64,000 bases of DNA from an uncultured Polyangiaceae bacterium (lineage in GTDB: Bacteria; Myxococcota_A; Polyangia; Polyangiales; Polyangiaceae), in the NCBI GenBank assembly GCA_964628155.1, contig CAZVPE010000006.1:291-64290 (forward strand), written 5' to 3'. The position numbers were made by a program, and so were the translations under genes. The notes under the pieces were generated by a model that searched no databases, was not told where the DNA came from, and saw nothing but the letters and a program-made list of their open reading frames with translations. Shown here piece after piece: positions 2,959-32,340 of the stretch; the stretch's first letter is position 1, and each line of letters begins with the position of its first letter.

Positions 2959-3215
2959 GTCGCACCCACCTGCAACGCCCGAACCTCGAGCTACGGATCA
3001 CGAGTTTCCGCTTGCACGTTCCAATCGCAGACTCGGCATTGCGTGCGATCGTGTCGAGAGGTCGCAAGCTGGACCGCACGTTCCTTCATCGTTCGTGACG
3101 TTGCTTGCCAATCGCAATTTGCGACTCCACGTTGGCACCCATGACGCAGTTCCGTCGCGAAACTCCCAAGCATTCGAAGACAACCGCAAAGCTGTCTCGC
3201 CGTGCTTTGCGTGCA

Positions 3216-4253
3216 ATGGCCACTTGTCCTCGCTCGGTGGTACTGGGGTGTGCGCTCGCGGCGTGTGGCGGCTCGAGCGGCGCAGCCGTGACATCGGGGG
3301 TCGTCGATCTCGACGCCTCGGCGGCCGATGCCTACAAGGCCGGGAGCGCGGCGGACGCCGCGGGTCCGACCGTCGAGAGCGACAGCGGCGGGCACATCGA
3401 CGCGGGAGACGCGGTCGCGAACGGTGGATTCATCGTTCCAGGAGCGGACGCTTCGTCGACGCCGAACGCGACGCAGGCTTTGGTTCGCTTCGCAGATTGG
3501 GCGCCGGATGCGCCGTCGGCAGGGGTCGATTTCTGCCTCGCCCCGACGGGTACGACGGAGTGGACGGGCCCCCTCTTGCAGCAGGACCTGCCGGCGGGAT
3601 CGCTCGGACAGGGAGGGCCCAACGGTCTCGAGTTTCCCACCGTCACCGCGTACCTCGCGATTGCGCCCGGAGATTACGATTTGCAGGTCGTGGAGACCGG
3701 CAGCGCGGATTGTACGGTCGGCATCCTTCCCGCCACGATGGGCCTCCCCTCGTTGGCAGCCGGCGCCCATACGACGTTTGCCCTCATGGGAGATGTCCAG
3801 CCCACGGGCGATGACGCGAGCCTGAAGGTCGGCGCGTTCTCGGACGACTCGGCCGCACCGGCCGGCACAACGGTCCTGCGGGTCATCAACGCCGTTCCGT
3901 CGCTCGCGTACATCGATGTCGGTTCGGGCAGTGTGGCGGCCGACAATCTCGCCCCGATTTTCGCAGACGTGCCCTTCGGGAGCGCGAGCGCCACGCTGCT
4001 CGACGGCGGGTCTGCCGACCCGAACGGGTACACTGCGTTCCCGCCGACGCCCGACGTCCAATTCAGCGCGCAGGCGAGCGGAACGGGCTCCGACAGCGCG
4101 ACGGCGACGCACGTGGTCGTCGGCGCGGGGGCGGTGACCACGCTGACGCTCATCAACGGTCAAAACGGCGGCAGGCCGCCCCAGTTTCTCGTGTGCTCGG
4201 ACAGCGGTCTTGGGCTCGGGCCGATGTCGCCGTGCAAAGTCTTTCCGCAGTGA
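3216..4253 (+). CDS. DUF4397-type secreted lipoprotein
   Basis: Lipoprotein signal MATCPRSVVLGCALAACGG. Repeated motifs LVRFADWAPDAPSAGVDF and LRVINAVPSLAYIDVG match the RxxHxxPDAPxVDV pattern of DUF4397. The start could also be 3105 or 3141. Confidence 0.65.
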   Translation: MATCPRSVVLGCALAACGGSSGAAVTSGVVDLDASAADAYKAGSAADAAGPTVESDSGGHIDAGDAVANGGFIVPGADASSTPNATQALVRFADWAPDAPSAGVDFCLAPTGTTEWTGPLLQQDLPAGSLGQGGPNGLEFPTVTAYLAIAPGDYDLQVVETGSADCTVGILPATMGLPSLAAGAHTTFALMGDVQPTGDDASLKVGAFSDDSAAPAGTTVLRVINAVPSLAYIDVGSGSVAADNLAPIFADVPFGSASATLLDGGSADPNGYTAFPPTPDVQFSAQASGTGSDSATATHVVVGAGAVTTLTLINGQNGGRPPQFLVCSDSGLGLGPMSPCKVFPQ

Positions 4254-4260
4254 GGCGGGG

Positions 4261-4809
4261 TCAGCGCGCCACGGGATACTTCGACAGCTTGCGCTGAAGG
4301 CTGCGCCTGTGGATTCCCAGCAGCCGGGCCGCCTGGGAGACGTTGCCGTGGCAGTCGGTGAGCACGCGATGAATGTGCTCCCACTCGGTCCGAGCCAGCG
4401 ACGCGACCTCGTGCTCGATCGTCATCGGGTCTTCGGGTCGCTTGGTCGCGCGCCCGAACGCCGCGAGAATCTCGTCGACGTCGGCAGGCTTGGTCAGGTA
4501 GTGGGTTGCACCGAGACGAACGGCCTCGAGCGCGGTCGCGATGCTGCCGTAGCCCGTCAGGATGACCACGTTGGTCGTCGCATCGATCGTCTTGAGCTCG
4601 AGCACCAGTTCTAGGCCGCTTCGACCCGGCATGCGAAGGTCGACGACCGCCAGCTCCGGACTGTCGTGTGCGGCGCTCGCCACCGCTTCGTCGACGGTCG
4701 ACGCCCCGCGAACGTCGAAGCCGCGAGCCTCGAACGCCCGCATCAAGCGCGTTCGAAATGTGGCGTCGTCGTCGACGACGAGAATGCTACGCGGGGCGCT
4801 CGCCGCCAC
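4261..4809 (-). CDS. regA: RegA/PrrA/ActR-family response regulator (receiver + Fis-type HTH)
   Basis: Receiver motifs LVVDDD and VVDLRMPG. The C-terminal HTH NVSQAARLLGIHRRSLQRKL closely resembles the invariant RegA HTH. The gene abuts the kinase stop. Confidence 0.85.
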   Translation of the reverse strand: MAASAPRSILVVDDDATFRTRLMRAFEARGFDVRGASTVDEAVASAAHDSPELAVVDLRMPGRSGLELVLELKTIDATTNVVILTGYGSIATALEAVRLGATHYLTKPADVDEILAAFGRATKRPEDPMTIEHEVASLARTEWEHIHRVLTDCHGNVSQAARLLGIHRRSLQRKLSKYPVAR

Positions 4810-16376: not shown

Positions 16377-17672
16377 CTACTCCCTCTCGATCCTCAGATC
16401 GATGAAATGCGTAGAGCAGGAGATGCACGGATCGTAGTTGCGCACCGCTTGCTCGGCTCTCCACGTCGCGTCCGCGAGGGGTAGCTCGGCGAGCGAAGGC
16501 GCCATCCGAAAGAGGTCTTCCTCGATCGTCTTCTGGTTCTGCGAGGTGGGCGGCACGATCCGCGCGTCGAGGATCGTCCCGCGCTCGTCGACGGCGTAGC
16601 GGTGGTAGAGGATCCCCCTCGGCGCCTCGGTACAGCCGTATCCGGTGCCCGCACGCTCCGGGGTCTCGACGAAGGGCCTCTCGGGGGGATCGTAGGCGTC
16701 GATGATCCGGCGCGCCTCGTCGAAGGCGTGAAGGACCTCGAGCAAACGCACGAGGATGCTCTTGAATGGGTTCCTGCAAGGAGCGACCAGCCCGATCGAT
16801 CGGGCCGCTTCGCTCGCCGCGTCCGAGAGGCGATCGAAGTTCAGATTGAACCGCGCGAGCGGCCCGCAAAAGTAGGCCCCTCGCTCGCGCATTCGAGCAT
16901 GGAGTGCCGTGGAGTACGGCACCTGCTCCTCGACGACGTGCGCGTCGAAATCGCGGGCTTCGATGTCGAGACCCGCGCTCGACGTGATTCGGCCGTCCAG
17001 CATCGGATATTCGCTCGGGTGCCGCAGTGCTACGAACTCGTAGTCCCGCTCGAAGTCCGGGAATGCCAGCGTCGAGGCCCAGCTGAGCGATTCGCGAACC
17101 GATTCGAGAGCCCAGTCGATCTCGGGTAGGAGCGCGCGGAGATCGGCCGCGGACGGTGTCTTGTAAAAGCCTCCGACGCGAACGTTGATGGGATGGATCT
17201 CGCGGCCGCCGACCCGCGCGACGATGGCGTTTCCGGCCTTCTTGATGCGCAGGCCCCGCTTGACGATCTCCGGATGATCCTTCGCCATCGCCAGCGCGTC
17301 GGGATAGCCGAGGAAATCGGGCGCGTGGAGCATGAAGACGTGAAGGGCGTGGCTCTCGATCCACTCGCCGCAATAGAGGAGGCGCCGCAGGCTCCGTATC
17401 GGACCTTCGACTCGGACCCCCAACGCATCTTCGACCGCCTGACAACTCGACATCTGATAGGCGACCGGGCAGATGCCGCAAATCCGCGCGGTGATGTCCG
17501 GCACCTCGGCGTAGGAGCGGCCGCGCAAGAACGCTTCGAAAAAACGTGGCGGCTCGAAGATGCGGAGCTCGACGGCGGTCGCCCGGCTGCCCTGGAGGCG
17601 GATCGTCAGAGACCCCTCCCCTTCGACGCGGGCGAGCGCCTCGACTTTGATCGTGCGTACGGTCTCGGTCAT
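16377..17672 (-). CDS. hyhL: [NiFe]-hydrogenase large (alpha) subunit, group 3b-like
   Basis: 431 aa. N-terminal ligands [10 protein letters not shown] and C-terminal DPCISCSTH, followed by a short cleavable tail FIDLRIERE. Confidence 0.85.
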
Positions 17673-18463
17673 CGCGCTTTCTCGCTCTCTTCGAGCCGGA
17701 TGGACTCGTTGCGAAAGGGCTCCGCGTTTGCATAGAAGGTGCGGAGCGCGCGCACGAGCGTTGCCTTTTTCGCGCCGGCGGCGAGAAATGTCCGGCCGAG
17801 CGAGGCCGCGTTCGGCGTTTCCATCGGGCCGTAACACCCGTAGCAACCGCGGTCGTAGCTCGGGCAAAGCGCTCCGCATCCCGCGTGGGTGATTGGGCCC
17901 AGGCAAGGCGTCCCGTGCGCGACGAGGACGCAAACGTTCCCTCTGCGTTTGCATTCGACGCACACGCTGTGCGCGGAGATTGCCGGCTTTCGCCCGTTCA
18001 AGAATGCGCCGATGACCTCGAGGAGCTGCGACTTTTCGACGGGGCAGCCCTGTAGCTCGAAGTCGACGCGCACGTGACGGGCGATGGCCGTCGATGTTGC
18101 CAGAGCGGCGACGTACTCCGGCGAAGCGTAGACGACGCTTCGGAATTCGTTCACGTCCGAGAAGTTGCGCAGCGCCTGGATGCCGCCGGAGGTCGCGCAC
18201 GCACCAATCGTCACGAGTGCCTTCGAAACGCGGCGCACCTCTTGGATTCGGCGCTCGTCGTCCGGCGTGGTGATCGACCCCTCGACGAGCGAGAGGTCGT
18301 ACGGGCCGGCGACGTCCGCCTTCGTTGCCTCTCTGAATTGGGCGATTTCCACGGCTCCCGCCAAGGCGAGAAGATCGTCCTCGCAGTCGAGGAGCGTCAG
18401 CTGGCACCCGTCGCATGACGCGAACTTCCAGACCGCCAACTTGGGTCGCTTTCGAGGGCGCAT
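17669..18463 (-). CDS. hyhS: [NiFe]-hydrogenase small (delta) subunit, group 3b-like
   Basis: 264 aa with no signal peptide. Motifs FASCDGCQ and GACATSGG plus distal Cys clusters ([25 protein letters not shown]). 4-nt overlap with hyhL. Confidence 0.85.
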
Positions 18464-18464
18464 A

Positions 18465-19307
18465 TCAGAGCTCCCGCCGATCGAGGAGGCTCGAAATCCG
18501 ATCGAACCGGAGCACCGGCCCGTCTCGGCACAAGAACGACTCGCGATACTGGCAGTGACCGCAGAACCGCAACGCACATTTCATGTTCCGCTCCATGGAG
18601 ACGAACATTCGGTCGCCCGGGAGGCCCCGGTTCGCGAGCGCGCGCGCGGTGAAGCGCATCATCACTTCCGGTCCGCAGATCATCGCGACCGTCGCGGCGG
18701 TGTCGATCGACACCTTGTCGAGAAGTGCCGGCACGACGCCGACGGGCCCGACCCAGTCTGCCTCCGCATGGTCCACGGTGACGTGGACACGCCCGTCGAG
18801 CTTCTTCTCCCAGCGCGCGACCTCCTTTCGATAGACGAGGTCCGCAGGGCTACGGGCCCCGTAGAGGAGCGTGACGTTGCGGAAGCGCCCCCGCTGGCGA
18901 ACGAGCTCGTAGACAACCGGCCTGAGCGGAGCGATCCCGAGTCCGCCCGCGATCACGATCACGTCTTTGCCGAAGGCCTGGTCGACCGGCCACCCGGCTC
19001 CGTACGGGCCGCGAACGCCGACCGTATCGCCGCGCTTGAGGCGCTGCATCGGTGTCGTAACGCTGCCGACTGCGCGAATCGTGTGGACCAGCGCGTGCGT
19101 CTGATTCGGGTCGCCGCTGATCGAGATCGGGACCTCGCCCACCCCGAAGAGGTAAAGCATGTTGAACTGACCGGGAGCGAACGAGAATCCACCGTTCGCG
19201 ACGTCGAGCCAGAGCGTGAAGGTGTCGGCGGTTTCTTGGGTGCGGCGCAGCACTCGGACCGGTTGCGGAAGCCACGGGTCAGCGCCGGCCGCGAATGGTT
19301 CGCTCAT
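18465..19307 (-). CDS. hyhG: Hydrogenase gamma subunit: FNR-like FAD/NAD(P)-binding protein with C-terminal 2Fe-2S
   Basis: 280 aa. Flavin-reductase pattern ([18 protein letters not shown]) and C-terminal [17 protein letters not shown]. Confidence 0.8.
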
Positions 19308-19762
19308 GGCGCTTGATAGACGTCGAGGCGCTGCAGGCGAACGTGGTCCAGCCGCTGGACCGTTTTCTCGTAAAGTCGCAGCACGAGTTCGTAGCCGAGG
19401 TCGTGGTCCTTCGAGATCTTGCCCCGCAGGCACGCGCCGTCGAACGCGAGCGCGACCACGGGCTCGACCGCGCGGGCGTCGAGGTTCACCCGGTACGGCG
19501 GGACGAGCCACGAGAGTCCCAGGACGTCGCCGGGGCCGACGCTTTCCATTTGGAGCGTTCCTCTGCCCGGCACGTGGACCTCGAGGGCGACGCGCCCGAC
19601 GCGAAGGAGGAAGAAGGTATTGGCATCGCCCCCTTCCCTCATCAGAAACTCGCCGGCTTCGAAGCGCAGATTTTTCGCGCACGCGACAATGAGCGCGACA
19701 TGCGCCTCGGAAAAGCCTTTGAGAAATTCGTGCTCGTGGAGGAGCCGCTCGAGGTTCTCCAT
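19304..19762 (-). CDS. Stand-alone cyclic-nucleotide-binding (CAP-effector-like) domain protein
   Basis: 152 aa: [49 protein letters not shown]...[11 protein letters not shown]...[12 protein letters not shown]. No HTH or other domain. It starts 3 nt after the hyhB stop, and its stop overlaps the hyhG ATG (ATGA). Confidence 0.75.
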
Positions 19763-19764
19763 GG

Positions 19765-20913
19765 TCAGCCTGGGTCGGAAGCCCGAATTGCGGCGACCTC
19801 TTGGGTGATGTCGATCGCCACGGGGCACCAGGTGATGCATCGGCCGCACCCGACGCATCCCGACGTTCCGAACTGGTCGATCCAGCTCGCGAGCTTGTGC
19901 GTGAGCCACTGCCGGTAGCGCGACTTGATCGACGCGTGCACGCTTCCGCCGTGCAAATAGCTGTGATCCATCGTGAAGCAGGAGTCCCAGCGCTGCACCC
20001 GCTCGGCCTGCTCTCCCGCCAGGTCGGTGACGTCGTCGACGGAAGAGCAAAAACACGTGGGACAGGCGAGCGTGCAATTCGTGCACGCCAGACACCGGCT
20101 CGCGACGTCGTCCCAGCGAGGGTGCTCCGCGTTTCGGTAGAGGAGCTCCTTGATCCCGTCCGTATTCATGGTCCGTCCCATTTGGGCTGCCGTTCGCGCC
20201 ACGATGGCTTCGGCCGCTTCGAGGTCGGCGCGAGGTGCCTCTTCGTAGCCCACGCGCTCCAAGACTTGCGCCCCTGATTCGCTCCCGATCCCGACGACGA
20301 AGCGGTGGCCCTTGTCGTCGAGGAGCTCGGTGAGCGCCAGGTCGAAGCCGAGCGTAGCCCGCGGCCCCGTTCCAAGGGAGGTGCAGAAACACGTCCCGCC
20401 GGCCTGACCGCAATGGACGGCCACGACGAACGTGCCGCTGCGTCGGGCAAGGTACTCCTGGTCGACCGATGGTCCCTCGAGAAACACTTTGTCTTGGATC
20501 GCGATGGCGTGGAGATCGCACGAACGCGCGCCGATGAGGGCGAGCAAGGGCGCACTTCGCGTCTTCTCGAGGACGACGAAAGAACCGTCGCGCCGCCTGG
20601 CGCGCCAAAGCTGGAGGGTCGGGACGAAAAAGAACGGCTTCCAAGACTGCGGGCCGACCGAGTACCCGAAGAGCGCCCGGTCATCGCGGCGGCGGAGGCG
20701 ATAGGTGCCGGCGTCTTGGGACTCCGTCCATCCCTCGGGCAGGTCCTCGATTCCGGAGATCGATTCGTGGACGATCGCGCCGTCTCGCACGGTGGGTCCG
20801 ACGAGCTGGAAGCCGTCCTGGCGCAGGACCTGGAGGAGCCGCGCAAAGCGGTCTCGCGAGAGAAGCGCGCGCTCTCCAAGACGGGTCGACTTCGTCATGG
20901 GCGCATCGGTCAT
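19765..20913 (-). CDS. hyhB: Hydrogenase beta subunit (AsrA-like 4Fe-4S protein)
   Basis: 382 aa with Cys clusters [16 protein letters not shown] and [12 protein letters not shown]. Size and order match the sulfhydrogenase-type beta subunit. Confidence 0.8.
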
Positions 20914-21653: not shown

Positions 21654-22751
21654 TCAGGGCCGCGTCGCGACATAAAGATGAGCGGCCCCGTCGCGATCGC
21701 TGCTCAAGTACAGGCGGCAGGCGTCTTGGGAAAGCCACGTCGGAGCGTCGAGCCCGCCGGAGTTGACCTCCCGAAGATCGAACGCATTGGCAAAGACTGC
21801 GGTCTTGCTGGTGCGCTGGGCAAGCCAAATGTCTTGGCCGCCGAGGCCCCCGCTTCTGGTCGAAGAATAAAGAATCGTCAGGTCGTCCGCCGAGAGGACC
21901 GGGTCCCCCTCGTTGACGCCCCCGCCCTGGTTCAACTCGGTTACAAGGGTCGGGGCCGCGAAGCCCGCGCCGCTTCTCGCCGCTCGATAGATGTCGTAAT
22001 CGCCGGCGCGACTCGAAGAAAAGTAGATCTCCGAACCGTCCGGCAGGATGAAAGGCTGCACGGTGCTCGTCGCCGTGGCGTTCAACTCGGCGAGCGCGCT
22101 TCGGCTGGAAAAGTCTCCGCCGTCCGGCCGCTGGGCTGAGTAAAGCTGATCGATTCCGGCATCGTCCTTCCCGGTCTTGACCCGGAACACGAGGGCGAGA
22201 CCGTCCCCCGTGCTACTGGGATCGATCGTGAGCGAATTGGGCATGTTGATGTTGCCGTTCAGCAGTTTGATGTTTCCGAACGGCGAGCCGAGATCCGAGC
22301 GGGTCGTGACGTAAAGGTTGCTCGATCCGGGGCCGCCGGGTCGCGAGCTCCAGAAGAACCCCGTGAGCTCGTCGGACAAAAGGCGAAGGCCTCCTTCGGT
22401 GGTGGCGGACTCCAGAGTGGTGAGCAGGACCGGCGGACCGAACGGTCTCGTGAGGTCGCAATTCCCCGCGTCGCCTCCCCCGTCGATTCCAGAATCAGGC
22501 GCCGCGGCGGAATCGGGCGCCGCGGCGGAATCAGGCGCCGCGGCCTCTACGGAAGCCTCCGCCTGCGCGTCCGGCGGTCCCCCGCCGTCGACCGCGACTT
22601 TGACAGTCCCTGCATCGATGACGATGAAGCCAAGGAGCTCGGTTACGTCGCCGCAGCCGCCCAAAAGGAGCGGCGCGAGGAGGACGAACCCGTGTCGGGG
22701 GATGAGCGGACCGGCGCGCAACGTGACGCGCATTAAAGCACGACGGGGCAC
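21654..22751 (-). CDS. TolB-like PD40/WD40 beta-propeller repeat lipoprotein
   Basis: Lipobox LLLGGCG. Repeated 'dg..ifFsSsR.Gg.DIy.a.R' units (EIYFSSSRAGDYDIYRAAR, ILYSSTRSGGLGGQDIWLAQR, LYLSSDRDG). The alternative start is 22733. Confidence 0.65.
   Translation of the reverse strand: MPRRALMRVTLRAGPLIPRHGFVLLAPLLLGGCGDVTELLGFIVIDAGTVKVAVDGGGPPDAQAEASVEAAAPDSAAAPDSAAAPDSGIDGGGDAGNCDLTRPFGPPVLLTTLESATTEGGLRLLSDELTGFFWSSRPGGPGSSNLYVTTRSDLGSPFGNIKLLNGNINMPNSLTIDPSSTGDGLALVFRVKTGKDDAGIDQLYSAQRPDGGDFSSRSALAELNATATSTVQPFILPDGSEIYFSSSRAGDYDIYRAARSGAGFAAPTLVTELNQGGGVNEGDPVLSADDLTILYSSTRSGGLGGQDIWLAQRTSKTAVFANAFDLREVNSGGLDAPTWLSQDACRLYLSSDRDGAAHLYVATRP
22492..22545. repeat. 3 x 18-nt tandem repeat inside the PD40 lipoprotein linker
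   Basis: gaatcaggcgccgcggcg / gaatcgggcgccgcggcg / gaatcaggcgccgcggcc, encoding (AAAPDS)x3 on the minus strand. Confidence 0.85.
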
Positions 22752-22799: not shown

Positions 22800-25622
22800 T
22801 CAGTGGGCGGTCTCTTTTTTCGACGCAGCGCCGAGGGCCGTTTGCGGCCGCACCCAGACTTCGACACGGCGATTTCGGTCTCGTCCGCCGGGCGATTCGT
22901 TGTCGGCCACCGGCCTCTCGTCGCCGAGCCCCTCGACGAGCGATGCGTGCAGTCCGTAGGCCTCGAGCCGGTGAGCGACCCTATCGGCGCGCTCGTGCGA
23001 GACGTGGCTCTTGACGTCGCTCGTGCCCTGGTTGTCCGAAAACCCGAGCAGAATGAACTCTGGCGTGCGCTGCATACGGAGGACTGCGGCCAATCGTCCG
23101 ATGTCTTGCGCGGCGCGGCTGTCGAGATCGCTCTGGCCGCTCCGAAAGCGGAACGTCAGTGACAGTCGCTTGGCGCCGCGCGTAAGCCCGGCGTAGTCCG
23201 CGGGGCAATCCGCGCACGAGTCCGAGTCGTCGGCCAGTGCGGACAGGTTTACAAAGCCCGCCGCCGCGACCAACGTCTGCCCCTCGGGCGACAGCGCAAA
23301 CTGAACGAAAGGCCCCGCCAGAGGATGGGTCGAGGGCGACGGCGCGTACAGATAGAGGCGTCGCGTCAACGGGTAATCTTCGCTTCCGACACTGAATCGG
23401 GTCGGGAAGAGCGCTCCCGCGCCGCTGGATACGGCTACCGCACTCGCGCGGCCGACCAACGACATTCCGACAAAACCGATTGCCTGCGGATTGGCCGCCA
23501 CGGCGGACGAAAGCTCCCCGCTGTCGGTGAAGCGCTTGGCCTTGGCGGCCAGGGGATGCTCCCCCAAAACGAGGGCTTTGAACGTGTCGTAGGTTCCCGA
23601 TCGGTCGTCGCGCGCGTACACCTCGATAGGGCTCGACGCGCCATCCACGGCGGCCGGCCAGTTGGTGGTCTCGCCGTCGAAGATGCGCGCGATGTCGTCG
23701 ATCGCCAGCGTGCGCAGCGGGTTGCTCTCGTTCACGACGACGGCGACTCCGTCCAGACCGATTACGTTCTCGTTCGAAGGGGCGCTCAGATCGCCGAGCC
23801 CGGCTTGCTTCAGCCGCTCGGCCTCTTCGGGCCGGATCATGCGCGAGGCCATGCCGAGATCGCAGCGACCCGCGCCGAGGTCGTCGAACGCCGTTCCAGA
23901 GCCCGCGGCGTCGATGTCGATCTCCACGGGCTGCGCGGACCCGGGCACCGTGCCCGAGACGACCCACGCGTGTCCGTCTGCATTCTTCGTGCGGGCCACG
24001 TCTTTGGCGCCCATGTGCTGAAGCAAGCCCGCGGCAAGCGACGGCGCGAGCTCGGCGCCGAACGTGTTGGACCCGTGCAACCGCAACGGCTTGACGGAGA
24101 CGGGCAAGACGGCGGCCGTTTCCCCGGCTTGCTCGAAGCGAACGGTGGGCGTCGTCGCCGCAGCATGCGCGTCGGGAATGAGCGCGCGAAAGAGAAGAAA
24201 GAGGCCCCCAGCCAGGAGCGTGGCCGCCGGCAGCGTCAACACCCAGGCGAGCGCGATGTTGCGAACGGTCGAGCCCTGGAGGCCCGACTTCTGTGCGATC
24301 ATGGTTCCCGCGATACCCGAAGACAGTACGTGCGTCGTGCTGACGGGCATTCCGAACGACCCGGAGAGGCCGATCGTCGTCATCGCCACGATCTCGGCCG
24401 AAGCACCCTGCGCGTACGTCAGGTGCGTTTTGCCGATCTTCTCCCCCACGGTCACGACGATGCGCTTCCAGCCGATCATCGTGCCGATGCCGAGCGAAAA
24501 AGCGATGAGACCGATGACCCAACCGGGCGCGTAGTCGATCGAAGCACGCAGGGTCTTTCGGTCCTTCTGGATGGCGGCCAGCCTCTCGGGGGAGAGCGCC
24601 GCTGCGCCCGTACCCTTCTCGAGCGTCGCCAGCTCGTTGTCCACGCGCATGATCCGCGATCGGACGTCGAAGCGTGCATCGGGCGGGATGTCTCGAATGG
24701 ATTCCTTTCCGTTGAGCGCCGCCCGGATCTCGCCGAGATCCGTAAGGACCGCTCCGGCGGGAGTCTTCGGTACGGCCATGTCGACCGTCGACGCGAGTCG
24801 CCCGGTCTCTCCGCCGAACGCGTCGCGGGTGTTGGTCTCCAGCCTCTCGGCGACCTGCACTGCGTCGTGGATCTGCGCCTTTGCGAGCGATGTGTTCAGC
24901 GCGTAGTCCGCGGGCAGCAGCCCGATGAGAATCAGCATGATGAGGCCGACGCCCTTCTGTCCGTCGTTCGATCCGTGGGCGAAGCTCACGCCGCTACACG
25001 TGCCGATGAGGATCGCCCGGATCCAACCCGGCGGCGTTTTGTCCGGATCGGCGGGCTGATGCAGCGCGGGAGACTTGAGGAGGTAATTTCTGGCCAAGAG
25101 CAGCAAGAGCGCGGCGGCCCCGAGTCCAAAAACGGGAGAAATGAGGAGCGAGAGGCCGATTTCACGGACCTTGTGCCAGTTGACCCCGCTCCCGAAGACG
25201 TGATTCGGCATGAGCGAATTGGCCAGGCCGACCCCCACGATCGCGCCGATGAGCGTGTGTGAGCTCGAAGCCGGCAGGCCGAGCCACCACGTGCCGAGAT
25301 TCCACATGATGGCCGCGACGAGCAGCGCGAGCACCATCGCAAGCCCGGCTCCGCTTCCGCTCGCAGCCAGGAGTTCGACCGGCAAGAGCTTGATGATGCT
25401 CATCGCCACCGCGATACCTCCGAGATACACGCCGAGGAGGTTGAGGACACCAGAAATGAGGACGGCCTTCCAGGGGCGGAGCGAGCGCGTGTAGATCACG
25501 GTGGCCACCGCGTTCGCCGTGTCGTGGAAGCCGTTGACGAACTCGAAGCCGCACGCGATGAGCAGCGCGACAATCAAGAGAACGAATTGGCCGGTCCCGA
25601 TGTTGGTGTCGAAGAGGTGCAT
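22800..25622 (-). CDS. Triple fusion: PiT-family phosphate permease + PstS-like periplasmic phosphate-binding domain + OmpA-like domain
   Basis: 940 aa. Residues 1-482 are PiT (GFHDTANAVAT, HGSNDGQKG, VSTTHVLSSGI). Residues ~511-793 are PBP-like (RLHGSNTFG..., GLDGVAVVVN, RDDRSGTYDTF, YPLTRRLYLY). Residues ~818-926 are OmpA-like (LLGFSDNQG...RADRVAHRL...NRRVEVWV). Confidence 0.85.
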   Translation of the reverse strand: MHLFDTNIGTGQFVLLIVALLIACGFEFVNGFHDTANAVATVIYTRSLRPWKAVLISGVLNLLGVYLGGIAVAMSIIKLLPVELLAASGSGAGLAMVLALLVAAIMWNLGTWWLGLPASSSHTLIGAIVGVGLANSLMPNHVFGSGVNWHKVREIGLSLLISPVFGLGAAALLLLLARNYLLKSPALHQPADPDKTPPGWIRAILIGTCSGVSFAHGSNDGQKGVGLIMLILIGLLPADYALNTSLAKAQIHDAVQVAERLETNTRDAFGGETGRLASTVDMAVPKTPAGAVLTDLGEIRAALNGKESIRDIPPDARFDVRSRIMRVDNELATLEKGTGAAALSPERLAAIQKDRKTLRASIDYAPGWVIGLIAFSLGIGTMIGWKRIVVTVGEKIGKTHLTYAQGASAEIVAMTTIGLSGSFGMPVSTTHVLSSGIAGTMIAQKSGLQGSTVRNIALAWVLTLPAATLLAGGLFLLFRALIPDAHAAATTPTVRFEQAGETAAVLPVSVKPLRLHGSNTFGAELAPSLAAGLLQHMGAKDVARTKNADGHAWVVSGTVPGSAQPVEIDIDAAGSGTAFDDLGAGRCDLGMASRMIRPEEAERLKQAGLGDLSAPSNENVIGLDGVAVVVNESNPLRTLAIDDIARIFDGETTNWPAAVDGASSPIEVYARDDRSGTYDTFKALVLGEHPLAAKAKRFTDSGELSSAVAANPQAIGFVGMSLVGRASAVAVSSGAGALFPTRFSVGSEDYPLTRRLYLYAPSPSTHPLAGPFVQFALSPEGQTLVAAAGFVNLSALADDSDSCADCPADYAGLTRGAKRLSLTFRFRSGQSDLDSRAAQDIGRLAAVLRMQRTPEFILLGFSDNQGTSDVKSHVSHERADRVAHRLEAYGLHASLVEGLGDERPVADNESPGGRDRNRRVEVWVRPQTALGAASKKETAH

Positions 25623-26772: not shown

Positions 26773-29703
26773 ATGCAGCGACTCCTTGACTCCGCGCGAA
26801 AAGCGAGCCTCTCGGCCGTTTGGTCGCAGGGTGTAAAGCTCGCACGCGACAAGGCCGTCTCGCTCGTCGCCTCCGGAACGGGAGAGCTGACGCTGCGCGT
26901 CCGCGCACCAGGACACGCGATCGCGCCGACGGTGACGCTGTACCTCGAGTCCCTCGAGTGGTCGTGCGACTGCGGGAGCAAAGTCGACCCTTGTGCCCAC
27001 GTGGCCGCGGGGGTCATCTCTGCCGCGGCCGCAGGGGTTGACGGACTCGCGGCGGCACCCGCCGACGTGCCGGCTCGGCTCGTGTATCGGCTGGGCACGA
27101 AAGGGAAGATTCTGACGCTCAACCGATTCATCGTGCACGGCGATGGGCGCGAAGAGCGACTGACCAGCGCCCTTTCTTCGGACCTCGCGCGCGGGCGGCT
27201 GCCCGCCGGGCTCACGCCGACCCACGACGACTTGCGGATCGATCGGATTTTAGGGTTCCCCGCGCGAGAAATCGTGCCGTTGGCTCGCGTGGCCGACGTC
27301 TTCGGCGCGCTCACCGGCGCTGAGGTGCGCTACGCAGGCGAGCCGGTGCGCCTTTCGAGCGATCCGCTTCTCCCGCGGGCGATCGTCGAAGACGCGCCCG
27401 GGGGCGGCTTCGTCTTGCGTATCGAGCGCGACCCGAGCGTGAGCGAAGTCATCGCGATGGGAATTGCGAAGTGTGGCGACGTGCTCCGTCCTCTCGGGGA
27501 AACGGCCACCACCGGCGAGTTCCTGGAGCGCCTCCCGCTTTCGCGCACGTTCGGTCGGTCCCAACAGACCGAGCTCGTGACCGCGGTTCTTCCGGAGCTC
27601 GAGAAGAAGCTCGCGGTCGTACTGACGACCAAGCTCCTTCCGCGCAAAAAGGTCGGAGCGCGACCGCGTATCGCGATGGACTTGGCCCACCAAGGGCACA
27701 CCCTCTCCATCCTGCCGGCGCTCGTCTACGGCGACCCGCCGATGGCGCGCGTCGACGGCGACGAAATCGTCCTCCTCGGAAGCGATGTGCCGGTCCGATT
27801 GGTAGAGGAGGAGCGGGCGCTTCTGAGGCGATTGCGCGATGAGCTCAACCTCGTCCCAGGCCGCCGGGTGGACCTCGATGGCGTCGAGGCCATCCGCTTT
27901 GCGGCCAAGCTGCGCGGATGGCAGGAGCGCAGCGGCGACGAGGCCCACGCCGCAATCTTCGACCGCAGGCCGCTTCTGGCTCGGCTCGATTTCGACGAAG
28001 GCGTGCTCGACGTCGCGTTCGAGTGCGAGACCGACCCCGACTCGGGCGAGCCGCCGAAGCGCGCGGACGCCGCGACGGTGATCCGGGCCTGGCGCGACGG
28101 ACTGGATCTGGTGCCGCTCGACGGGGTCGGCTGGGCACCGCTTCCCGCCGACTGGCTGGAGCGCCACGGCCACCGGGTCGCCGACCTTCTGGCCGCTCGC
28201 GACGAACAGGGAAAGCTGCACCGCGCCGCCCTTCCCGAGCTCGGCGCCCTATGGGACGCGCTCGGCTCGCCGAAGCCGCTCGGTCTGGACAAGCTCGCGC
28301 CCCTGGTCGAGGGCTTCGACGGGATTCCTCGGGCGAAGCTGCCGGAGGGCGTCACGGCGCATCTTCGTACCTATCAGGAGCACGGCTACGATTGGTTGAC
28401 GTTTCTCCGCGACGCCGAGTTCGGCGCGGTCCTCGCCGATGACATGGGTCTCGGAAAGACGCTGCAAACGATCTGCGCCCTGCGCGGTCGCGCCCTCGTC
28501 ATCTGTCCGAAGAGCGTCGTCTACAACTGGGTCGACGAAATCGCCCGCTTTCGTCCTGGGCTGCGCACAGCCATCTACCATGGCGCGAAGCGCGAGCTCG
28601 ATCTGAACGCGGACGTGACGTTGACCACATACGCCGTGCTTCGAATCGACGTGGATCGACTCGCCGCGCAATCGTGGGACACCATCGTGCTCGACGAAGC
28701 GCAGGCCATCAAGAACGAGTCGAGCCAGACCGCGCGCGCCGCCTACCTTCTGCGCGGGGCGTTTCGGGTCGCGCTCAGCGGCACCCCAATCGAGAACCGC
28801 CTCGAAGAACTCTGGAGCGTGATGCACTTCGCCAACCCGGGGCTCCTGGGTGGCCGGAGCGACTTTCAGGAGCGCTACGCGATCCCAGTCTCCAACGGCG
28901 ACGCGTCCGCCGTCGCGCGGCTACATGCCAAGATTCGGCCCTTTGTGCTCCGGCGGATGAAGCGCGAAGTGCTCCCAGAGCTGCCGCCGCGCACCGACTC
29001 GATACTCCACGTCGAGCTCGACGAGGTGGAGCGCGCCATCTACGACTCGGTGCGGGTGGCGACCAGGAAGGACATCGTGACGAAGCTCGCGCAGGGCGGA
29101 GGCGTTCTTGCGGTGCTGGAAGCTCTCCTTCGCTTGCGTCAGGCGGCCTGCCATCCGTCGCTCCTTCCCGGGCAAGAAGCGGCCACCTCGTCGAAGGTCG
29201 AGCGCCTGCTCGAGGCCTTGAGCGAAGCGATCGCCGACGGACACAAGGCGCTCGTCTTCTCGCAGTGGACGGGGCTCTTGGACCTCGTGGAGCCCCACTT
29301 GAACGCGGCCAGCATCCCCTTCGTGCGCCTCGACGGCTCGACGCGGGACCGCGCGGCGGTCGTGGCTCAATTCCAAAGCGAAACGGGACCGCCCGTGATG
29401 CTCGTGTCGCTCAAAGCGGGTGGGACGGGCCTGAATCTCACCGCCGCGGACCACGTTTTTCTGCTCGATCCCTGGTGGAACCCCACAGTCGAAGACCAGG
29501 CGGCCGACCGCGCCCATCGCATCGGCCAAGATCGACCGGTCATGGTCTACCGCATGATCGCCAAGGACACGGTGGAGGAGCGCATCTTCACGCTGCAGGA
29601 AAAAAAGCGCACACTTGCGGACATCGCGCTCGGAGCCGCAGCCGGCTCGGCGAGCCAGGGCAGCGGCATTACCCGCGACGATCTCCTGGCCATCCTCGAC
29701 TGA
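26773..29703 (+). CDS. SNF2-family helicase with N-terminal SWIM zinc finger
   Basis: SWIM motif [18 protein letters not shown]2_N motifs [12 protein letters not shown] and [10 protein letters not shown], Helicase_C motifs [26 protein letters not shown] and [11 protein letters not shown]. Confidence 0.9.
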
Positions 29704-30172: not shown

Positions 30173-32203
30173 TCAAGTCAACGGCCGCCCCCGCTCTTTT
30201 TCTTCCAGCGCTTCCCAGCGCACCAAGAGCCGCGCTGCCTCGGCCCTCGCGCCTTCTAGCCGCGCCTTTAGCTCGGCAACTTTCTCCCCCCCTCTCGTCG
30301 CCGCGTAAAGAGCGGGGTCGGCGAGCTCCGCTTCGAGCTCTTGGACACGCTTTTCGGCCTCGTCGACCGCCGGAACGATCCCGGCCAGCTCGATCCGCTC
30401 GGCATACGTGAGCACCGCGCGCTTGGGCTCGTCTTTTTTCGGGGGTCTCGGCGCGGGGCTCGCCGCGGCCGGCGCAGGCGCCTTCTTGGCTTCCGACCGA
30501 TCACTCCTCTGGACGACGTAGTCTTCGTAGCCCCCCGCGTACCGGACGGGTGTCGCCAAGCTGCCACGCGCTTCGCCACCGGCAGCAGACGGCTCGAAGG
30601 CGAGAATTGCGGTCGCGATGCGGTCGAGAAACGCCCGGTCGTGGGTCACGACGATTGCGGACCCCTCGTAGTCTTCGAGAAGGCCTTCGAGCGCCGTCAG
30701 CGTCGGCAAATCGAGATCATTGGTCGGCTCGTCGAGCACGAGAAGGTTTCCCTCCCCCCGCAGCATCTTGGCGAGCGCGACGCGGGCCCGCTCGCCACCA
30801 GACAAAGAAGCAACCTTCTGCCGCTGCTTTTTCGCGTCGAAAAGGAAGAGCTCCAAGTAGCTCCGCAGATCCATCGCTTCCCGCCCACGCACGCCGAGGT
30901 GCACCGTGGTGCCGCCGCCCTCTCCGCGAACGTCGTCGAAAATCGACTTCGTGTCGTCGAGTCCCGCGCGCGCCTGGTCGAGGTAAGCCACCCGAGTGTT
31001 TTTGCCGACGACGATGGACCCGGCGACCAGAACGGGCGCGTCCTTGGGGCGCGCTCCGCCGCGGGACTCTTCGACTGCCGCGAGAATCGCCCGCAAAAGC
31101 GTCGTCTTTCCGGCGCCGTTCGGTCCGACCACCCCGATTCGTTCGCCCGCTGTAACGATGAGGTCGAACGGCGCGTTCAACGCGGGCGTCTCGCCCGTCG
31201 CGGCGACCTGCAGACCGCGAAGCTCGAGCACAGTCTTCCCCTGCTGCGGCGCGGACCCGGTGACCAACGTCACTTCGCCCGGCCTTCCAGCCGTCGCCGG
31301 GGTCGCGGCTTCCAAGACGGCTGCGCGCTGGATGCGCGCCTTCTGCTTGGTACTCCGCGCTTTGGGGCCGCGCGCCAGCCATTCGCGCTCGCGGCGAAGG
31401 GCGTTCTTCCTATTTTGCTCGACGCGCTCTTCGTGCGCGAGAAGCTCGGCCTTTTTGTCGAGATAGTCGCCGTAGCCCCCTGGGTAAGAGACGAGCTTTC
31501 CTCGCTCGAGCTCGACGATCCGCGTCGCCACGGCATCGAGGAAGTACCGGTCGTGGGTCACGAGGACCAGGGCTCCACGGAACCGGCGGTCGAGGAGATC
31601 TTCCAGCCAAGCCGCCGTGTCTGCGTCGAGATGGTTGGTCGGCTCATCCAGAATGGCAACGTCGGGGCTCGCGACGAGCAGCTGCGCGAGGGCAATCCGC
31701 CGTCGCTCGCCGCCGCTCCGGAGCCCGCAGGGACGATCGACGTCGCGTACGCCCAGCTTGTCGAGAAATCCGAGCGCCTCGTGCCCTCGTTCCCAGCCGC
31801 CCAGCCGGACGATGGCCTCATCGAGCTCGGCTTGTTCGGCCAAGAGGGCCTCGTGCCGGTCACTCTCCGTCCCTTGGGCGAGCTTCGCCGTCACCTCTGC
31901 GTGACGCGACGACGCTTGACGCCAGGCGGTCAGCGCGTCTTCGACCACCGCTCGCGCGCTCGCGTCCGGGTCGATCTCGGGCTCCTGGGCCAGGTATCGC
32001 ACCGAGAGGCCTCGGCGCACGCTCAGGGTGCCGCCGTCGGGCGTCTCCAAGCCGGCGAGGATCTTCGCGAGCGTCGATTTGCCCGCGCCGTTGGCACCGA
32101 TGAGCCCGACCTTCTCGCCGCGCGCGAGCGTGAACGTGGCGTCGTCGAGAACGACTTGCGGACCGAACGCTTTTCGAAGGTGCTGGGCGGAGAGCGCAGG
32201 CAT
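30173..32203 (-). CDS. ABC-F family ATPase (Uup-like, C-terminal coiled coil)
   Basis: Two ABC cassettes (GANGAGKSTL and GPNGAGKTTL, LSGGERRR and LSGGERAR), no TM domain and a C-terminal helical tail. The start is taken at MPALSAQHL. Confidence 0.9.
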   Translation of the reverse strand: MPALSAQHLRKAFGPQVVLDDATFTLARGEKVGLIGANGAGKSTLAKILAGLETPDGGTLSVRRGLSVRYLAQEPEIDPDASARAVVEDALTAWRQASSRHAEVTAKLAQGTESDRHEALLAEQAELDEAIVRLGGWERGHEALGFLDKLGVRDVDRPCGLRSGGERRRIALAQLLVASPDVAILDEPTNHLDADTAAWLEDLLDRRFRGALVLVTHDRYFLDAVATRIVELERGKLVSYPGGYGDYLDKKAELLAHEERVEQNRKNALRREREWLARGPKARSTKQKARIQRAAVLEAATPATAGRPGEVTLVTGSAPQQGKTVLELRGLQVAATGETPALNAPFDLIVTAGERIGVVGPNGAGKTTLLRAILAAVEESRGGARPKDAPVLVAGSIVVGKNTRVAYLDQARAGLDDTKSIFDDVRGEGGGTTVHLGVRGREAMDLRSYLELFLFDAKKQRQKVASLSGGERARVALAKMLRGEGNLLVLDEPTNDLDLPTLTALEGLLEDYEGSAIVVTHDRAFLDRIATAILAFEPSAAGGEARGSLATPVRYAGGYEDYVVQRSDRSEAKKAPAPAAASPAPRPPKKDEPKRAVLTYAERIELAGIVPAVDEAEKRVQELEAELADPALYAATRGGEKVAELKARLEGARAEAARLLVRWEALEEKERGRPLT

Positions 32204-32340
32204 GCACGGACGGGAGCACGCTCGAGGGCTCTGGCGCAACCTTTGGCCAGCGGCACGGGGCTCGTAACTTCCCGTCGCTTCGATGGACTCGAGGCACTAG
32301 CCCCCGGCCGCGAACCGAGCTAGGTGCCCTGGATTCCTCG

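Follow-up and report, generated by a model that had tools for sequence, protein, structure and literature searches.

Textbook accounts of bacterial phosphate uptake distinguish the Pit carriers, which are gradient-driven and of low affinity, from the Pst system, which is ATP-driven, of high affinity and dependent on a binding protein. An open reading frame (ORF) in the 64,000-nucleotide stretch of Polyangiaceae DNA analysed here (the window) joins parts that resemble both, and raises the question of whether the fusion is real and, if so, how a PstS-like domain might serve a PiT carrier. The ORF occupies positions 22800–25622 on the minus strand and encodes, from an ATG start, 940 residues plus stop in the order PiT, linker, PstS-like domain, linker, OmpA-like domain; coordinates and length are exactly those of an initial sequence-only reading of the locus.

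Reality and overall architecture of the fusion

We conclude that the gene is real and conserved in soil myxobacteria of the Polyangiaceae, and is neither a chance ORF nor a chimeric assembly, since an identical 940-residue protein is called on four contigs and, of the first 59 clusters of homologues listed, 54 have all three Pfam domains, down to 49% identity. These 54 clusters are drawn from NCBI, JGI, ENA and Logan assemblies. An artefact in which mis-assembly or a frameshift has joined two genes can be practically discounted, given these contigs and clusters, the in-frame PiT fusion confirmed at the DNA level at seven loci, and the even GC content along the whole gene.

The three modules (residues 1–482, 513–795 and 818–926) all score above their Pfam thresholds and all match solved folds in Foldseek searches, for which TM-scores are normalised to the target. 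The original domain assignments thus stand, and the boundaries first proposed (1–482, ∼511–793 and ∼818–926) agree with the secondary structure predicted by AlphaFold2, in which the last transmembrane helix, TM8, ends at residue 481, the first PstS strand starts from 513 and the OmpA-like fold spans 818–925. AlphaFold2 gave no confident inter-domain arrangement or docking (pTM 0.55, with pLDDT below 50 in the first linker); a pTM of 0.55 is about the contribution expected from the PiT module by itself. A Pfam scan of the ORF returned PHO4, PBP_like_2 with related binding-protein families, and OmpA, with DctQ/DctM, TctA/TctB, DctP and TctC absent. Present annotation of the fused proteins reads simply 'PiT family inorganic phosphate transporter', which conceals half of the protein. 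Conservation counts given below refer to an alignment of 48 fused members at 42–100% identity.

The PiT carrier module

Residues 1–482 (positions 24177–25622, minus strand) form a PitA-type PiT carrier, identified by PHO4, by a PitA model and by alignment and fold similarity to the TmPiT structure 6l85. PHO4 matches residues 30–471 over positions 1–350 of its 350-position profile (E 9.8e-88; 294.9 bits, cut-off 33.7), and the permease is therefore complete, as had been proposed. The exception-level NCBIfam PitA model NF033774 matches residues 8–478 with 442.2 bits, a strong score that falls below its curated cut-off of 800; the module has a PitA-like layout, including the long L7 insert, and lies outside the curated E. 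coli-type group. It is ∼54% identical to ordinary unfused PiTs. Superposition on TmPiT gives a Foldseek probability of 1.0 and a TM-score of 0.64, and the sequence alignment to 6l85 extends to residue 397 of the 402-residue chain. TmPiT is divided into transport and scaffold domains and contains re-entrant hairpins.

Members of the PiT family are defined by two PD001131 repeats, each carrying a G-Φ-N-D-Φ signature and a P-Φ-S-x-T motif (PMC7413737). Both repeats are present here, with the signatures GFHDTANA (residues 31–38) and GSNDGQKG (217–224), as are the hairpin-tip motifs PASSSH (117–122) and PVSTTH (426–431). These positions are essentially invariant, 24 of 27 being identical in all 48 members, with A118 kept in 46 and S218 in 45; A38 of GFHDTANA is invariant in a separate conservation listing. 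TM6 and TM7 are separated by a hydrophilic helical insert of ∼125 residues (238–366; 24525–24911, minus strand), corresponding to loop L7 of PitA-type proteins, which is predicted by AlphaFold2 to be helical and has no hydrophobic span. It is predicted to be periplasmic, since its flanking loops are K/R-rich, i.e. cytoplasmic. It is shared with E. coli PitA, in which L7 is unusually long (PMC3126765), and is partly deleted in one member of the family (P0035). Judged by its sequence, the module is a complete carrier with intact transport motifs, and ion-coupled phosphate transport is predicted.

Membrane topology and the first linker

In its repeats, its motifs and its N-out/C-out topology the query resembles the PiT family (TC 2.A.20) as a whole, including E. 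coli PitA and TmPiT. It differs from the characterised PiTs in its 458 extra C-terminal residues, placed in the periplasm; we know of no characterised PiT with a periplasmic C-terminal extension. The last transmembrane helix, TM8 (residues 450–481; 24180–24275, minus strand), is located by alignment to 6l85, by AlphaFold2 and by hydrophobicity, and runs from inside to outside. Both termini are extracellular in the TmPiT crystal structure, the C-termini of PiT1 and PiT2 have been located outside by C-terminal tags, and a positive-inside tally for the query gives 13.3 K+R in the cytoplasmic loops compared with 1.1 in the outside loops. Homology and charge bias thus place the PiT C-terminus in the predicted periplasmic position that the sequence-only reading called for, and the extension with it, no hydrophobic span having been found downstream of TM8 in the query.

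The first linker (residues 483–512; 24087–24176, minus strand) is predicted to be flexible, with pLDDT below 50 over residues 487–508. Its sequence is variable, and its length is 26–36 residues throughout the family. It contains a candidate signal-peptidase-I site, with A485-H486-A487 providing the −3 and −1 residues (24162–24170, minus strand), within the sequence IPDAHA↓A, 7–9 residues after TM8. In 23 of the 48 members, all of which belong to the same sub-clade as the query, the AxA motif follows TM8 at an unchanged distance. It is absent from the divergent P0041–P0059 sub-clade, which has a Pro-rich linker instead, and from a second, OmpA-less type of fusion described below, so that it is not a trait of the whole family.

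The PstS-type domain

Residues 513–795 (23238–24086, minus strand) form a putative phosphate-binding domain of the PstS-type Venus-flytrap fold, recognised by PBP_like_2, PDB alignments and fold. PBP_like_2 matches residues 564–780 (E 4.2e-27; 96 bits, cut-off 27), and the NCBIfam PstS family model TIGR02136 matches residues 565–792 with 145.8 bits, a strong score that is below its cut-off of 206.6. Among Pi-bound PstS structures, Foldseek gives TM-scores of 0.80 with 4gd5, the C. perfringens phosphate-binding protein PBP-1, and 0.87 with 1twy.

The phosphate ligands of PBP-1 are S11, T12, S13, S41, S59, R125, S129, G130 and T131 (PMC5381212). Mapping of these by PDB alignment with 4q8r/4gd5 (S575, S593, R671, S675, G676 and T677) and by the GS-T motif (S518, N519 and T520) gives nine predicted ligand residues, of which seven are identical; Ser13 is conservatively replaced by T520 and Thr12 is changed to N519. 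Six of the nine (S518, T520, S593, S675, G676 and T677) are kept in all 48 fused members, R671 in 44 and N519 in 42, and position 575 is Ser or Thr throughout. Inorganic phosphate is the ligand in almost all PBP_like_2 proteins with structural characterisation, and residues 513–795 probably bind it too.

The domain shares with PBP-1 not only the Venus-flytrap fold but also the substitution of Ser (S593, equivalent to Ser59) for the Asp that makes a low-barrier hydrogen bond. PBP-1 was the least arsenate-selective of the phosphate-binding proteins tested. The PstS-like assignment of the sequence-only reading holds, but that reading missed the Ser-type character of the site, and its 'high-affinity' label should be used with caution for a domain that lacks the Asp and its low-barrier hydrogen bond.

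The second linker and the OmpA-like domain

The second linker (residues 796–817; 23172–23237, minus strand) is 21–28 residues long, and mostly 22–24, in all OmpA-bearing members. In the query it holds C803-x-x-C806, and CxxC is found in 31 of the 48 fused members. It leads into an OmpA-like, putatively peptidoglycan-binding domain (residues 818–926; 22845–23171, minus strand), assigned by Pfam, alignments and fold. The Pfam OmpA match covers residues 826–918 (E 2.9e-11; 44 bits, cut-off 27.2), and the peptidoglycan-binding structures 5u1h and 3td3 superimpose with a TM-score of ∼0.76 and an rmsd of ∼1.8 Å. Among PDB sequences, YiaD matches residues 825–926 best.

In alignments with YiaD and further OmpA-family structures, D863 and R878 fall on the TD...RA motif, and they correspond to an Asp/Arg pair that binds diaminopimelate, a role described for Asp271/Arg286 (PMC12108004). 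The pair is kept in every OmpA-bearing member of the alignment. An NRRVEV motif follows at residues 917–922. From these residues the domain should bind peptidoglycan, non-covalently.

Distribution of the PstS-OmpA cassette

The PstS-like and OmpA-like domains also occur together elsewhere, as a cassette carried by 587 or more species genomes from many phyla, usually behind a signal peptide. NCBI names the two-domain proteins 'phosphate ABC transporter substrate-binding/OmpA family protein', in line with the statement in the sequence-only reading that PstS-OmpA fusions are annotated in databases. The PiT fusion accounts for seven of 85 cassette loci and comes from ∼5 species-level genomes in a narrow Polyangiaceae clade. 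A stand-alone cassette from Pseudomonas mosselii (WP_138218011.1) is collinear with residues 513–925 of the query, to which it is 42% identical. The GSNT, GS, SR and RDDxSGT motifs, the second linker and the D...R...NRRVEV pattern all recur in it; it differs at the N-terminus, where it has a cleavable signal peptide instead of PiT and the first linker, the TM8/linker region of the query occupying the place of the signal peptide in the alignment. We suggest from this collinearity that the PiT extension was derived from a ready-made cassette. Fused cassettes and the 78 unfused ones carry the same key residues, including the Asp/Arg pair and the NRRVE motif.

Other cassettes are carried behind a single TM segment by Ser/Thr kinases, the commonest membrane partner (three of the loci, plus seven of ten sampled long representatives), by receiver+DUF4388 proteins (two loci) and by a PilZ protein (one locus), with essentially the same ligand residues as the PiT-fused cassette. 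At least 300 non-PiT residues precede the cassette in ∼36 of the top 150 representatives. In the fused protein, the N-terminal element is instead a full multi-pass PiT, not a signal peptide of its own or a single TM anchor.

No pstCAB or phoU genes lie beside the fused genes, within ∼5 kb on each side in the window and 8 kb on each side at two further loci (L013 and L014), or beside stand-alone cassettes at the loci examined, so that the fused clamp has no evident ABC partner nearby, although a PstCAB may be encoded farther off in the genome. The 85 cassette loci have no conserved neighbour, and the 78 stand-alone loci no conserved transporter neighbour. A literature search found no paper on the triple PiT-PstS-OmpA architecture, which the sequence-only reading likewise did not know as characterised, and no experimental study of the fused proteins or of the stand-alone cassette.

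A second PiT-PstS pairing

Three further proteins (P0066, P0067 and P0069) have PiT fused to a different PstS subtype, 27–29% identical to that of the query, with OmpA absent. Their PiT modules are 53% identical to the query's, no nearer than unfused PiTs (median 54%), and sequence comparison suggests that a PiT-PstS fusion apparently arose a second time, independently. In an Acidobacteriota MAG (locus L095) the same parts as in the OmpA-less fusion are encoded by adjacent genes, the PstS-like gene lying directly downstream of the transporter gene and its product having its own lipoprotein signal. By this Rosetta-stone pattern, PiT and PstS appear to have been paired functionally more than once, and the existence of the OmpA-less variant implies that the wall anchor is dispensable for such pairing. 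Separate genes for both parts were seen only at L095, which belongs to the other fusion type; no support for an artefact was found.

Comparison with other transport systems

The fusion shares with the TRAP (DctPQM/SiaPQM) and TTT systems the concept of an ion-gradient carrier that works with a periplasmic binding protein. The TRAP membrane unit, like PiT, is a hairpin-type transport-plus-scaffold carrier with both termini outside, and SiaQM, an elevator of this type and topology, is strictly dependent on its binding protein. The resemblance is mechanistic only, there being no sequence or family kinship between PHO4 and PBP_like_2 on the one hand and DctP or TctC and their carriers on the other. 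In contrast to TRAP and TTT, the fusion has its binding unit covalently attached and putatively wall-anchored, and dependence of transport on that unit is hypothetical. The PstS of PstSCAB is free or lipid-anchored, whereas the domain described here is tethered at both ends and is not encoded with pstCAB.

The ABC importers GlnPQ and OpuA have their substrate-binding domains tethered to the translocator by a short flexible linker, and the covalent tether provides each carrier with a private receptor, as in the fusion. These importers are ATP-driven, however, whereas the fusion is a secondary carrier whose binding domain has a second, peptidoglycan anchor. MotB, YiaD and TssL, like the fusion, have a membrane-embedded N-terminal part and a periplasmic OmpA-like domain. 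They serve as stators, lipoproteins and components of secretion systems. No solute carrier is among them, and they lack a binding-protein domain between membrane and anchor.

Possible mechanism and alternatives

The reading that we tentatively favour, as a real possibility, is that of a binding-domain-assisted PiT, TRAP-like in its working and unrelated to TRAP by descent. On the topology given above, TM8 of the inner-membrane, ion-coupled PitA-type carrier exits to the periplasm and continues as a flexible tether of ∼30 residues to the PstS-family clamp, and the OmpA-like domain would rest non-covalently on peptidoglycan, so that the protein would span from inner membrane to cell wall with a phosphate trap above the carrier. 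The clamp would catch periplasmic phosphate at levels under the carrier's own working range and hand it over at the outward-facing site. A PMF-driven PiT would thus become a one-polypeptide uptake system, comparable to the TRAP 'elevator-with-an-operator' or to ABC importers with fused binding domains. Attachment of the assembly to the wall would be the task of the OmpA-like domain, which may in addition dimerise beside the dimeric PiT. Within this scheme we infer phosphate binding, peptidoglycan binding, hand-over to the carrier and a mature protein in which the covalent link survives.

Delivery is favoured by the architecture, by the near-invariant contact residues in all three modules, by the second fusion and the adjacent L095 pair, by the TRAP precedent for a hairpin elevator operated by a binding protein, by the constrained lengths of both linkers despite their variable sequences, and by the absence of ABC partner genes next to the clamp. 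Against it, AlphaFold2 predicts no confident docking, and a clamp fixed at both TM8 and peptidoglycan would be restricted in any docking movement. Moreover, the cargo of E. coli PitA is a neutral metal-phosphate complex and the ligand of PstS is free phosphate, so that direct hand-over would require an extra step. The cassette is also found far more often on kinases, receiver-DUF4388 and PilZ proteins, which suggests a sensing role for it generally. This raises an alternative, on balance unlikely, in which the cassette senses periplasmic phosphate and regulates PiT allosterically, for instance by opening or closing it, or in which the whole protein is a transporter-receptor, with no delivery. 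The many cassettes behind long non-PiT regions and the missing docking prediction fit such a role; PstS can signal as a ligand of the chemoreceptor CtpL, and fused regulatory domains are common among transporters. PiT has no cytoplasmic output domain, however, leaving the carrier itself, whose own site already responds to external phosphate, as the sole thing to regulate. A clamp of typical PstS affinity would be expected to saturate across the PitA working range, and hence to regulate poorly, and the L095 layout, with a lipoprotein binding-protein gene just after the transporter, is that of a classic uptake operon and not of a sensor.

Distinctly less probable is a cassette that, as it would in its stand-alone form, only buffers or stores phosphate at the wall, and that pins the carrier to peptidoglycan, holding it in place or bridging the periplasm, with no direct communication between clamp and carrier. 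It would be consistent with the lack of predicted docking and with the retention of the Asp/Arg pair and NRRVE motif in fused and unfused cassettes alike, and the orphan state of the stand-alone genes at 78 loci does argue that the cassette has an independent role. It leaves unexplained, however, both the OmpA-less PstS subtype joined to or adjoining PiT and the tight lengths of the two linkers. The AxA motif in the query's sub-clade could also permit proteolytic release. TM8 would then be an internal signal sequence, with signal peptidase I cutting after A485-H486-A487 to free PstS-OmpA as a conventional periplasmic protein, a prospect that we regard as slim; the fusion would in that case serve only to secure 1:1 co-production and co-localised insertion. 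The consensus IP[DN]AxA↓A does resemble a signal-peptide c-region, in which a helix-breaking Pro precedes small residues at positions −3 and −1. The motif keeps its spacing in nearly half of the members inside an otherwise variable linker, and the signal peptide of the stand-alone homologue aligns to exactly that spot. The motif is nevertheless missing from the P0041–P0059 sub-clade and the second fusion type, and the hydrophobic stretch of TM8, ∼24 residues from R454 to R479, is long for a cleavable h-region, which is typically shorter.

If binding-domain-assisted transport is correct, a carrier with its own PstS-type clamp would blur the division between Pit and Pst, and binding-protein assistance, known to us among secondary carriers only from TRAP and TTT, could be grafted on to a PiT-fold carrier. 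It would allow high-affinity phosphate scavenging on the PMF with no ATP spent, of use to slow-growing soil bacteria, and the Polyangiaceae version would be mechanically tied to the cell wall; fusion of PiT with PstS-OmpA may thus be a new way to equip a proton-driven carrier with a substrate-capture arm. More doubtful is the broader proposal that PiTs with dedicated PstS clamps make up a third class of binding-protein-dependent secondary transporters beside TRAP and TTT, one that evolved more than once and would include the Polyangiaceae fusion, the anchorless fusion of another lineage and the adjacent genes in Acidobacteriota. The fusion also draws attention to PstS-OmpA as a very widespread, wholly uncharacterised periplasmic cassette. 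Its commonest membrane partner being a Ser/Thr kinase, its distribution hints that the kinase-linked cassettes may be phosphate sensors anchored to the wall, a family not recognised so far.

Architecture and conservation of the fusion protein

The fusion protein is encoded on the minus strand by a single ORF of 940 codons with an ATG start (22800-25622), whose GC content is that of the rest of the window. Pfam detects three domains in it, each well over its gathering score: PHO4 (residues 30-471, the whole profile, E 9.8e-88), PBP_like_2 (residues 564-780, E 4.2e-27) and OmpA (residues 826-918, E 2.9e-11). NCBIfam matches are to the PitA model (residues 8-478, 442 bits, under the curated cut-off of 800), to the PstS-family model TIGR02136 (residues 565-792, 146 bits, under the cut-off of 206.6) and to numerous OmpA-like lipoprotein and stator models. 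Sequence matches in the PDB are to PstS structures, the PiT transporter 6l85 and YiaD/OmpA-like domains. The AlphaFold2 prediction, from a 48-homologue alignment, has a mean pLDDT of 84, with every module confidently folded. In Foldseek searches (TM-scores normalised to the target) the PiT part matches 6l85 (probability 1.0, TM-score 0.64), the PstS part matches phosphate-bound 4gd5 (0.80) and 1twy (0.87), and the OmpA part matches the OmpA-like domains of OprF and A. baumannii (∼0.76, rmsd ∼1.8 Å). The ORF, Pfam, AlphaFold2 and Foldseek results agree with the coordinates and domain borders of an earlier, sequence-only reading, and the Pfam scores bear out its PstS-like and OmpA-like assignments. 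No second copy of any of the three modules is present elsewhere in the window, and a promoter and terminator scan gave nothing over shuffled expectation.

That reading had also allowed for an assembly artefact, in which separate genes were joined. This is very improbable, since the identical 940-residue protein is called on 4 contigs, all three Pfam domains occur together in 54 of the 59 first-listed homologue clusters, down to 49% identity and drawn from NCBI, JGI, ENA and Logan assemblies, and the in-frame fusion of PiT to the PstS-OmpA half (the cassette) was confirmed on DNA at 7 loci. We conclude that the fusion is genuine. Among 48 aligned members (42-100% identity), the signature and hairpin-tip motifs of PiT are almost invariant (A118 in 46, S218 in 45, the remainder in all 48), the PstS ligand positions vary little or not at all, and the OmpA Asp/Arg pair is retained in every member having that domain; purifying selection therefore acts on all three modules as working parts.

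Ligand site, wall anchor and linkers

The closest solved relative of the PstS-type domain is C. perfringens PBP-1, which contacts phosphate through S11, T12, S13, S41, S59, R125, S129, G130 and T131 and does not have the low-barrier-hydrogen-bond Asp of the E. coli-type PstS (PMC5381212). By PDB sequence alignment and the GS-T motif, these contacts map to S518, N519, T520, S575, S593, R671, S675, G676 and T677; seven positions keep the PBP-1 residue, Ser13 is conservatively replaced by T520, and Thr12 gives way to N519. Inorganic phosphate is bound by almost all structurally characterised PBP_like_2 proteins, and phosphate is thus the best-supported predicted ligand. By analogy with PBP-1, the domain may discriminate only modestly against arsenate.

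In the OmpA-like domain, D863, R878 and NRRVEV align with TD...RA...NRRVE of YiaD and other OmpA-family structures. The equivalent pair in A. baumannii OmpA, Asp271/Arg286, binds the diaminopimelate of peptidoglycan (PMC12108004). Linker 1, between the PiT and PstS modules (residues 483-512), is predicted to be disordered and keeps a length of 26-36 residues across the family. Linker 2, between the PstS and OmpA domains (residues 796-817), has 21-28 residues, mostly 22-24, and in 31 of 48 sequences carries a CxxC motif (C803 and C806; residues 803-806, window 23205-23216, minus strand) that may form a disulfide staple in the periplasm or bind a metal.

Membrane topology

In the crystal structure of TmPiT, TM1/TM2/HP1/TM3 are followed by the scaffold pair TM4-5 and then by TM6/TM7/HP2/TM8, with both termini extracellular. 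The fusion protein differs in having no TM4-5 pair, and its alignment ends no more than 5 residues from the TmPiT C-terminus. PMC3126765 reports, from C-terminal tags, that the C-termini of PiT1 and PiT2 lie outside the cell. Under an N-out/C-out model the short cytoplasmic loops carry on family average 13.3 Lys and Arg residues, compared with 1.1 in the outside loops, and no hydrophobic span was found downstream of TM8 (residues 450-481). A periplasmic location is therefore predicted for residues 483-940; it is the one required by both fused domains and the one on which the idea of a tethered capture domain had depended. By the same topology logic, with charge bias, L7, a helical insert of ∼125 residues that is a PitA-type hallmark (residues 238-366, window 24525-24911, minus strand), is expected on the periplasmic rather than the cytoplasmic side. 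In E. coli PitA this loop is of unusual length. About 60 L7 residues are missing from the homologue P0035, which retains the fusion; this short PiT with a cassette was considered as a third independent fusion and rejected, being a main-clade member with part of L7 deleted.

The PstS-OmpA cassette in other proteins

A scan of one genome per species with residues 501-940 found relatives in at least 587 genomes from many phyla, including Acidobacteriota, Gamma- and Betaproteobacteria, Desulfobacterota and Myxococcota. In Pseudomonas mosselii the homologue (locus L003, 435 residues) runs collinear with residues 513-925, with 42% identity, and has a signal peptide that aligns opposite linker 1. Only 7 of 85 complete-cassette loci are fused to PiT, and those with a taxon name (L013 and L014 have none) all belong to Polyangiaceae or 'delta proteobacterium' MAGs. 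No PiT was found near the other 78 in flanks of at most 3.5 kb per side (for L003, 6 kb); these include a complete Sorangium genome (53% identity), and they conserve the ligand and peptidoglycan residues at 94-100%. When 1.84 billion representatives were searched exhaustively with HMMER, a single full-length 50%-identity representative stood for the main fused clade. The fused clade is narrow, which answers the matter of taxonomic spread raised by the sequence-only reading. Its statement that PstS-OmpA fusions are annotated in databases was right, the P. mosselii protein being named 'phosphate ABC transporter substrate-binding/OmpA family protein' at NCBI. Fusion and cassette proteins alike are filed under generic names; literature searches, including those for PHO4 with PBP_like_2 and for binding proteins fused to secondary transporters, found no paper describing the PiT-PstS-OmpA fusion or the cassette, in line with the earlier view of the triple architecture as uncharacterised. 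The modules are known and their combination is uncharacterised.

Elsewhere the cassette follows a single TM and another N-terminal module: a Ser/Thr kinase (L020:1794-4742, Vitiosangium; L042:2217-4709, Kofleriaceae; L056:2523-4682, Armatimonadota), a receiver with DUF4388 (L035:2406-4772 and L050:2355-4754), PilZ (L038:2703-4793) or a Cys-rich, zinc-ribbon-like N-terminus (L022:3012-5534 and L078, ∼3216-4739). About 36 of the best 150 representatives have at least 300 non-PiT residues ahead of the cassette, and 7 of 10 long representatives sampled are kinase-cassette proteins (P0153, P0164, P0166, P0170, P0204, P0221 and P0226). The cytoplasmic signalling modules in front of it suggest that in many proteins the cassette is a sensor ectodomain. 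The kinase layout (Pkinase, one TM, PBP_like_2, OmpA) occurs in Myxococcota, Armatimonadota and others with the phosphate-ligand residues intact, and these proteins have the appearance of a hitherto undescribed kinase family, wall-anchored and phosphate-sensing. Their diversity far exceeds that of the PiT fusion. Tandem forms also occur: P0131 carries the full cassette twice, and P0248 and P0267 each combine a pair of PstS domains with a single OmpA domain.

A second pairing of PiT and PstS

In three further clusters of ∼875 residues (P0066, P0067 and P0069), PiT is fused to a PstS domain of another subtype, with the motifs GSSTV, GTGAG and GPGPGSGTYDYF, no Arg at the position of R671 and no OmpA domain. 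Their PiT domain is 53% identical to that of the fusion protein, no closer than unfused PiTs (median 54%), and their PstS domain only 27-29%; the PiT domain of P0069 shares 59-66% identity with unfused PiTs from Bradyrhizobium, Pseudomonas and others. These values fit an independent fusion event. In the Acidobacteriota MAG locus L095, a pit gene (2947-4575) is followed by a separate, adjacent pstS-like ORF extending to 5687, which opens with a lipoprotein signal (LLTLLAAASIVAPGLGC) and shares 48% identity with the PstS domain of P0069. L095 is not a frameshifted fusion, as its PiT ORF ends in the way normal for PitA and the ORF after it has a lipobox of its own. Fusion in one genome and adjacency in another constitute a Rosetta-stone signature of functional coupling. 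The adjacent arrangement is rare, L095 being the only one of 80 loci searched in which a pstS-like gene adjoins an unfused pit. A PPK2 polyphosphate kinase gene ends 4 bp upstream of the P0069 gene.

Proposed function

The reading that we rank highest, and hold tentatively, is that the PstS-type domain (the clamp), tethered to the PiT module (the carrier), would capture phosphate, which would then pass from clamp to carrier. A precedent is TRAP SiaQM, an elevator carrier of the hairpin type with N-out/C-out topology that works under the control of a binding protein; TmPiT resembles it in its transport and scaffold domains and re-entrant hairpins. The likeness to TRAP/TTT systems is one of mechanism only, the Pfam matches placing the fusion protein outside that family. 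In the full-length AlphaFold2 run (48 sequences) the clamp is not docked on the carrier; interdomain contact was judged from the scores alone, a pTM of 0.55, as without confident docking, and a linker pLDDT below 50, so that the outcome is uninformative rather than evidence against contact. If coupling is confirmed by experiment, it could establish a new class of secondary transport that depends on a binding protein.

Such delivery is preferred to a phosphate-sensing gate on the carrier, which we consider possible but rather doubtful. A gate would accord with the cassette lying behind a single TM and cytoplasmic signalling modules in other lineages, but here the clamp's partner is a carrier of the same ligand with no output domain, and uptake systems classically have the binding-protein gene immediately behind that of the transporter. 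Moreover, a clamp of PstS affinity would presumably be saturated over the usual range of PitA, and would extend the reach of the carrier rather than regulate it. That the fused domains act as anchor and buffer only is unlikely, and that the protein is a cleaved precursor is slightly less likely. The motif IP[DN]AxA|A, read as IPDAHA|A at the start of linker 1 (residues 485-487, window 24162-24170, minus strand), looks like a candidate signal-peptidase site; it follows TM8 with identical spacing in 23 of 48 sequences, all within the sub-clade of the fusion protein, and is absent from the other fused sub-clade, whose linker 1 is rich in Pro.

Gene neighbourhood

No pstCAB or phoU gene lies beside any fused gene in the neighbourhoods examined, and when all flanking ORFs of the 85 cassette loci were clustered, no family occurred in more than 11 loci. 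The neighbours in the window are a PD40/TolB-like lipoprotein gene 48 nt downstream of the fusion gene (21654-22751, minus strand), genes for a SWIM, SNF2 and helicase protein (26773-29703, plus strand) and an ABC-F type ATPase (30173-32239, minus strand), and a small hypothetical protein. This arrangement is syntenic only with the two closest relatives (L001 and L002), so these neighbours probably have no functional tie to the fusion gene; in three further contexts the neighbours differ. A gene cluster at 16377-20913 (minus strand) contains a 4Fe-4S dicluster protein (Fer4_22) and, assigned by reading of the translations alone, [NiFe]-hydrogenase-like large and small subunit genes, an FAD/NAD-binding oxidoreductase-like ORF and an ORF of cyclic-nucleotide-binding appearance.
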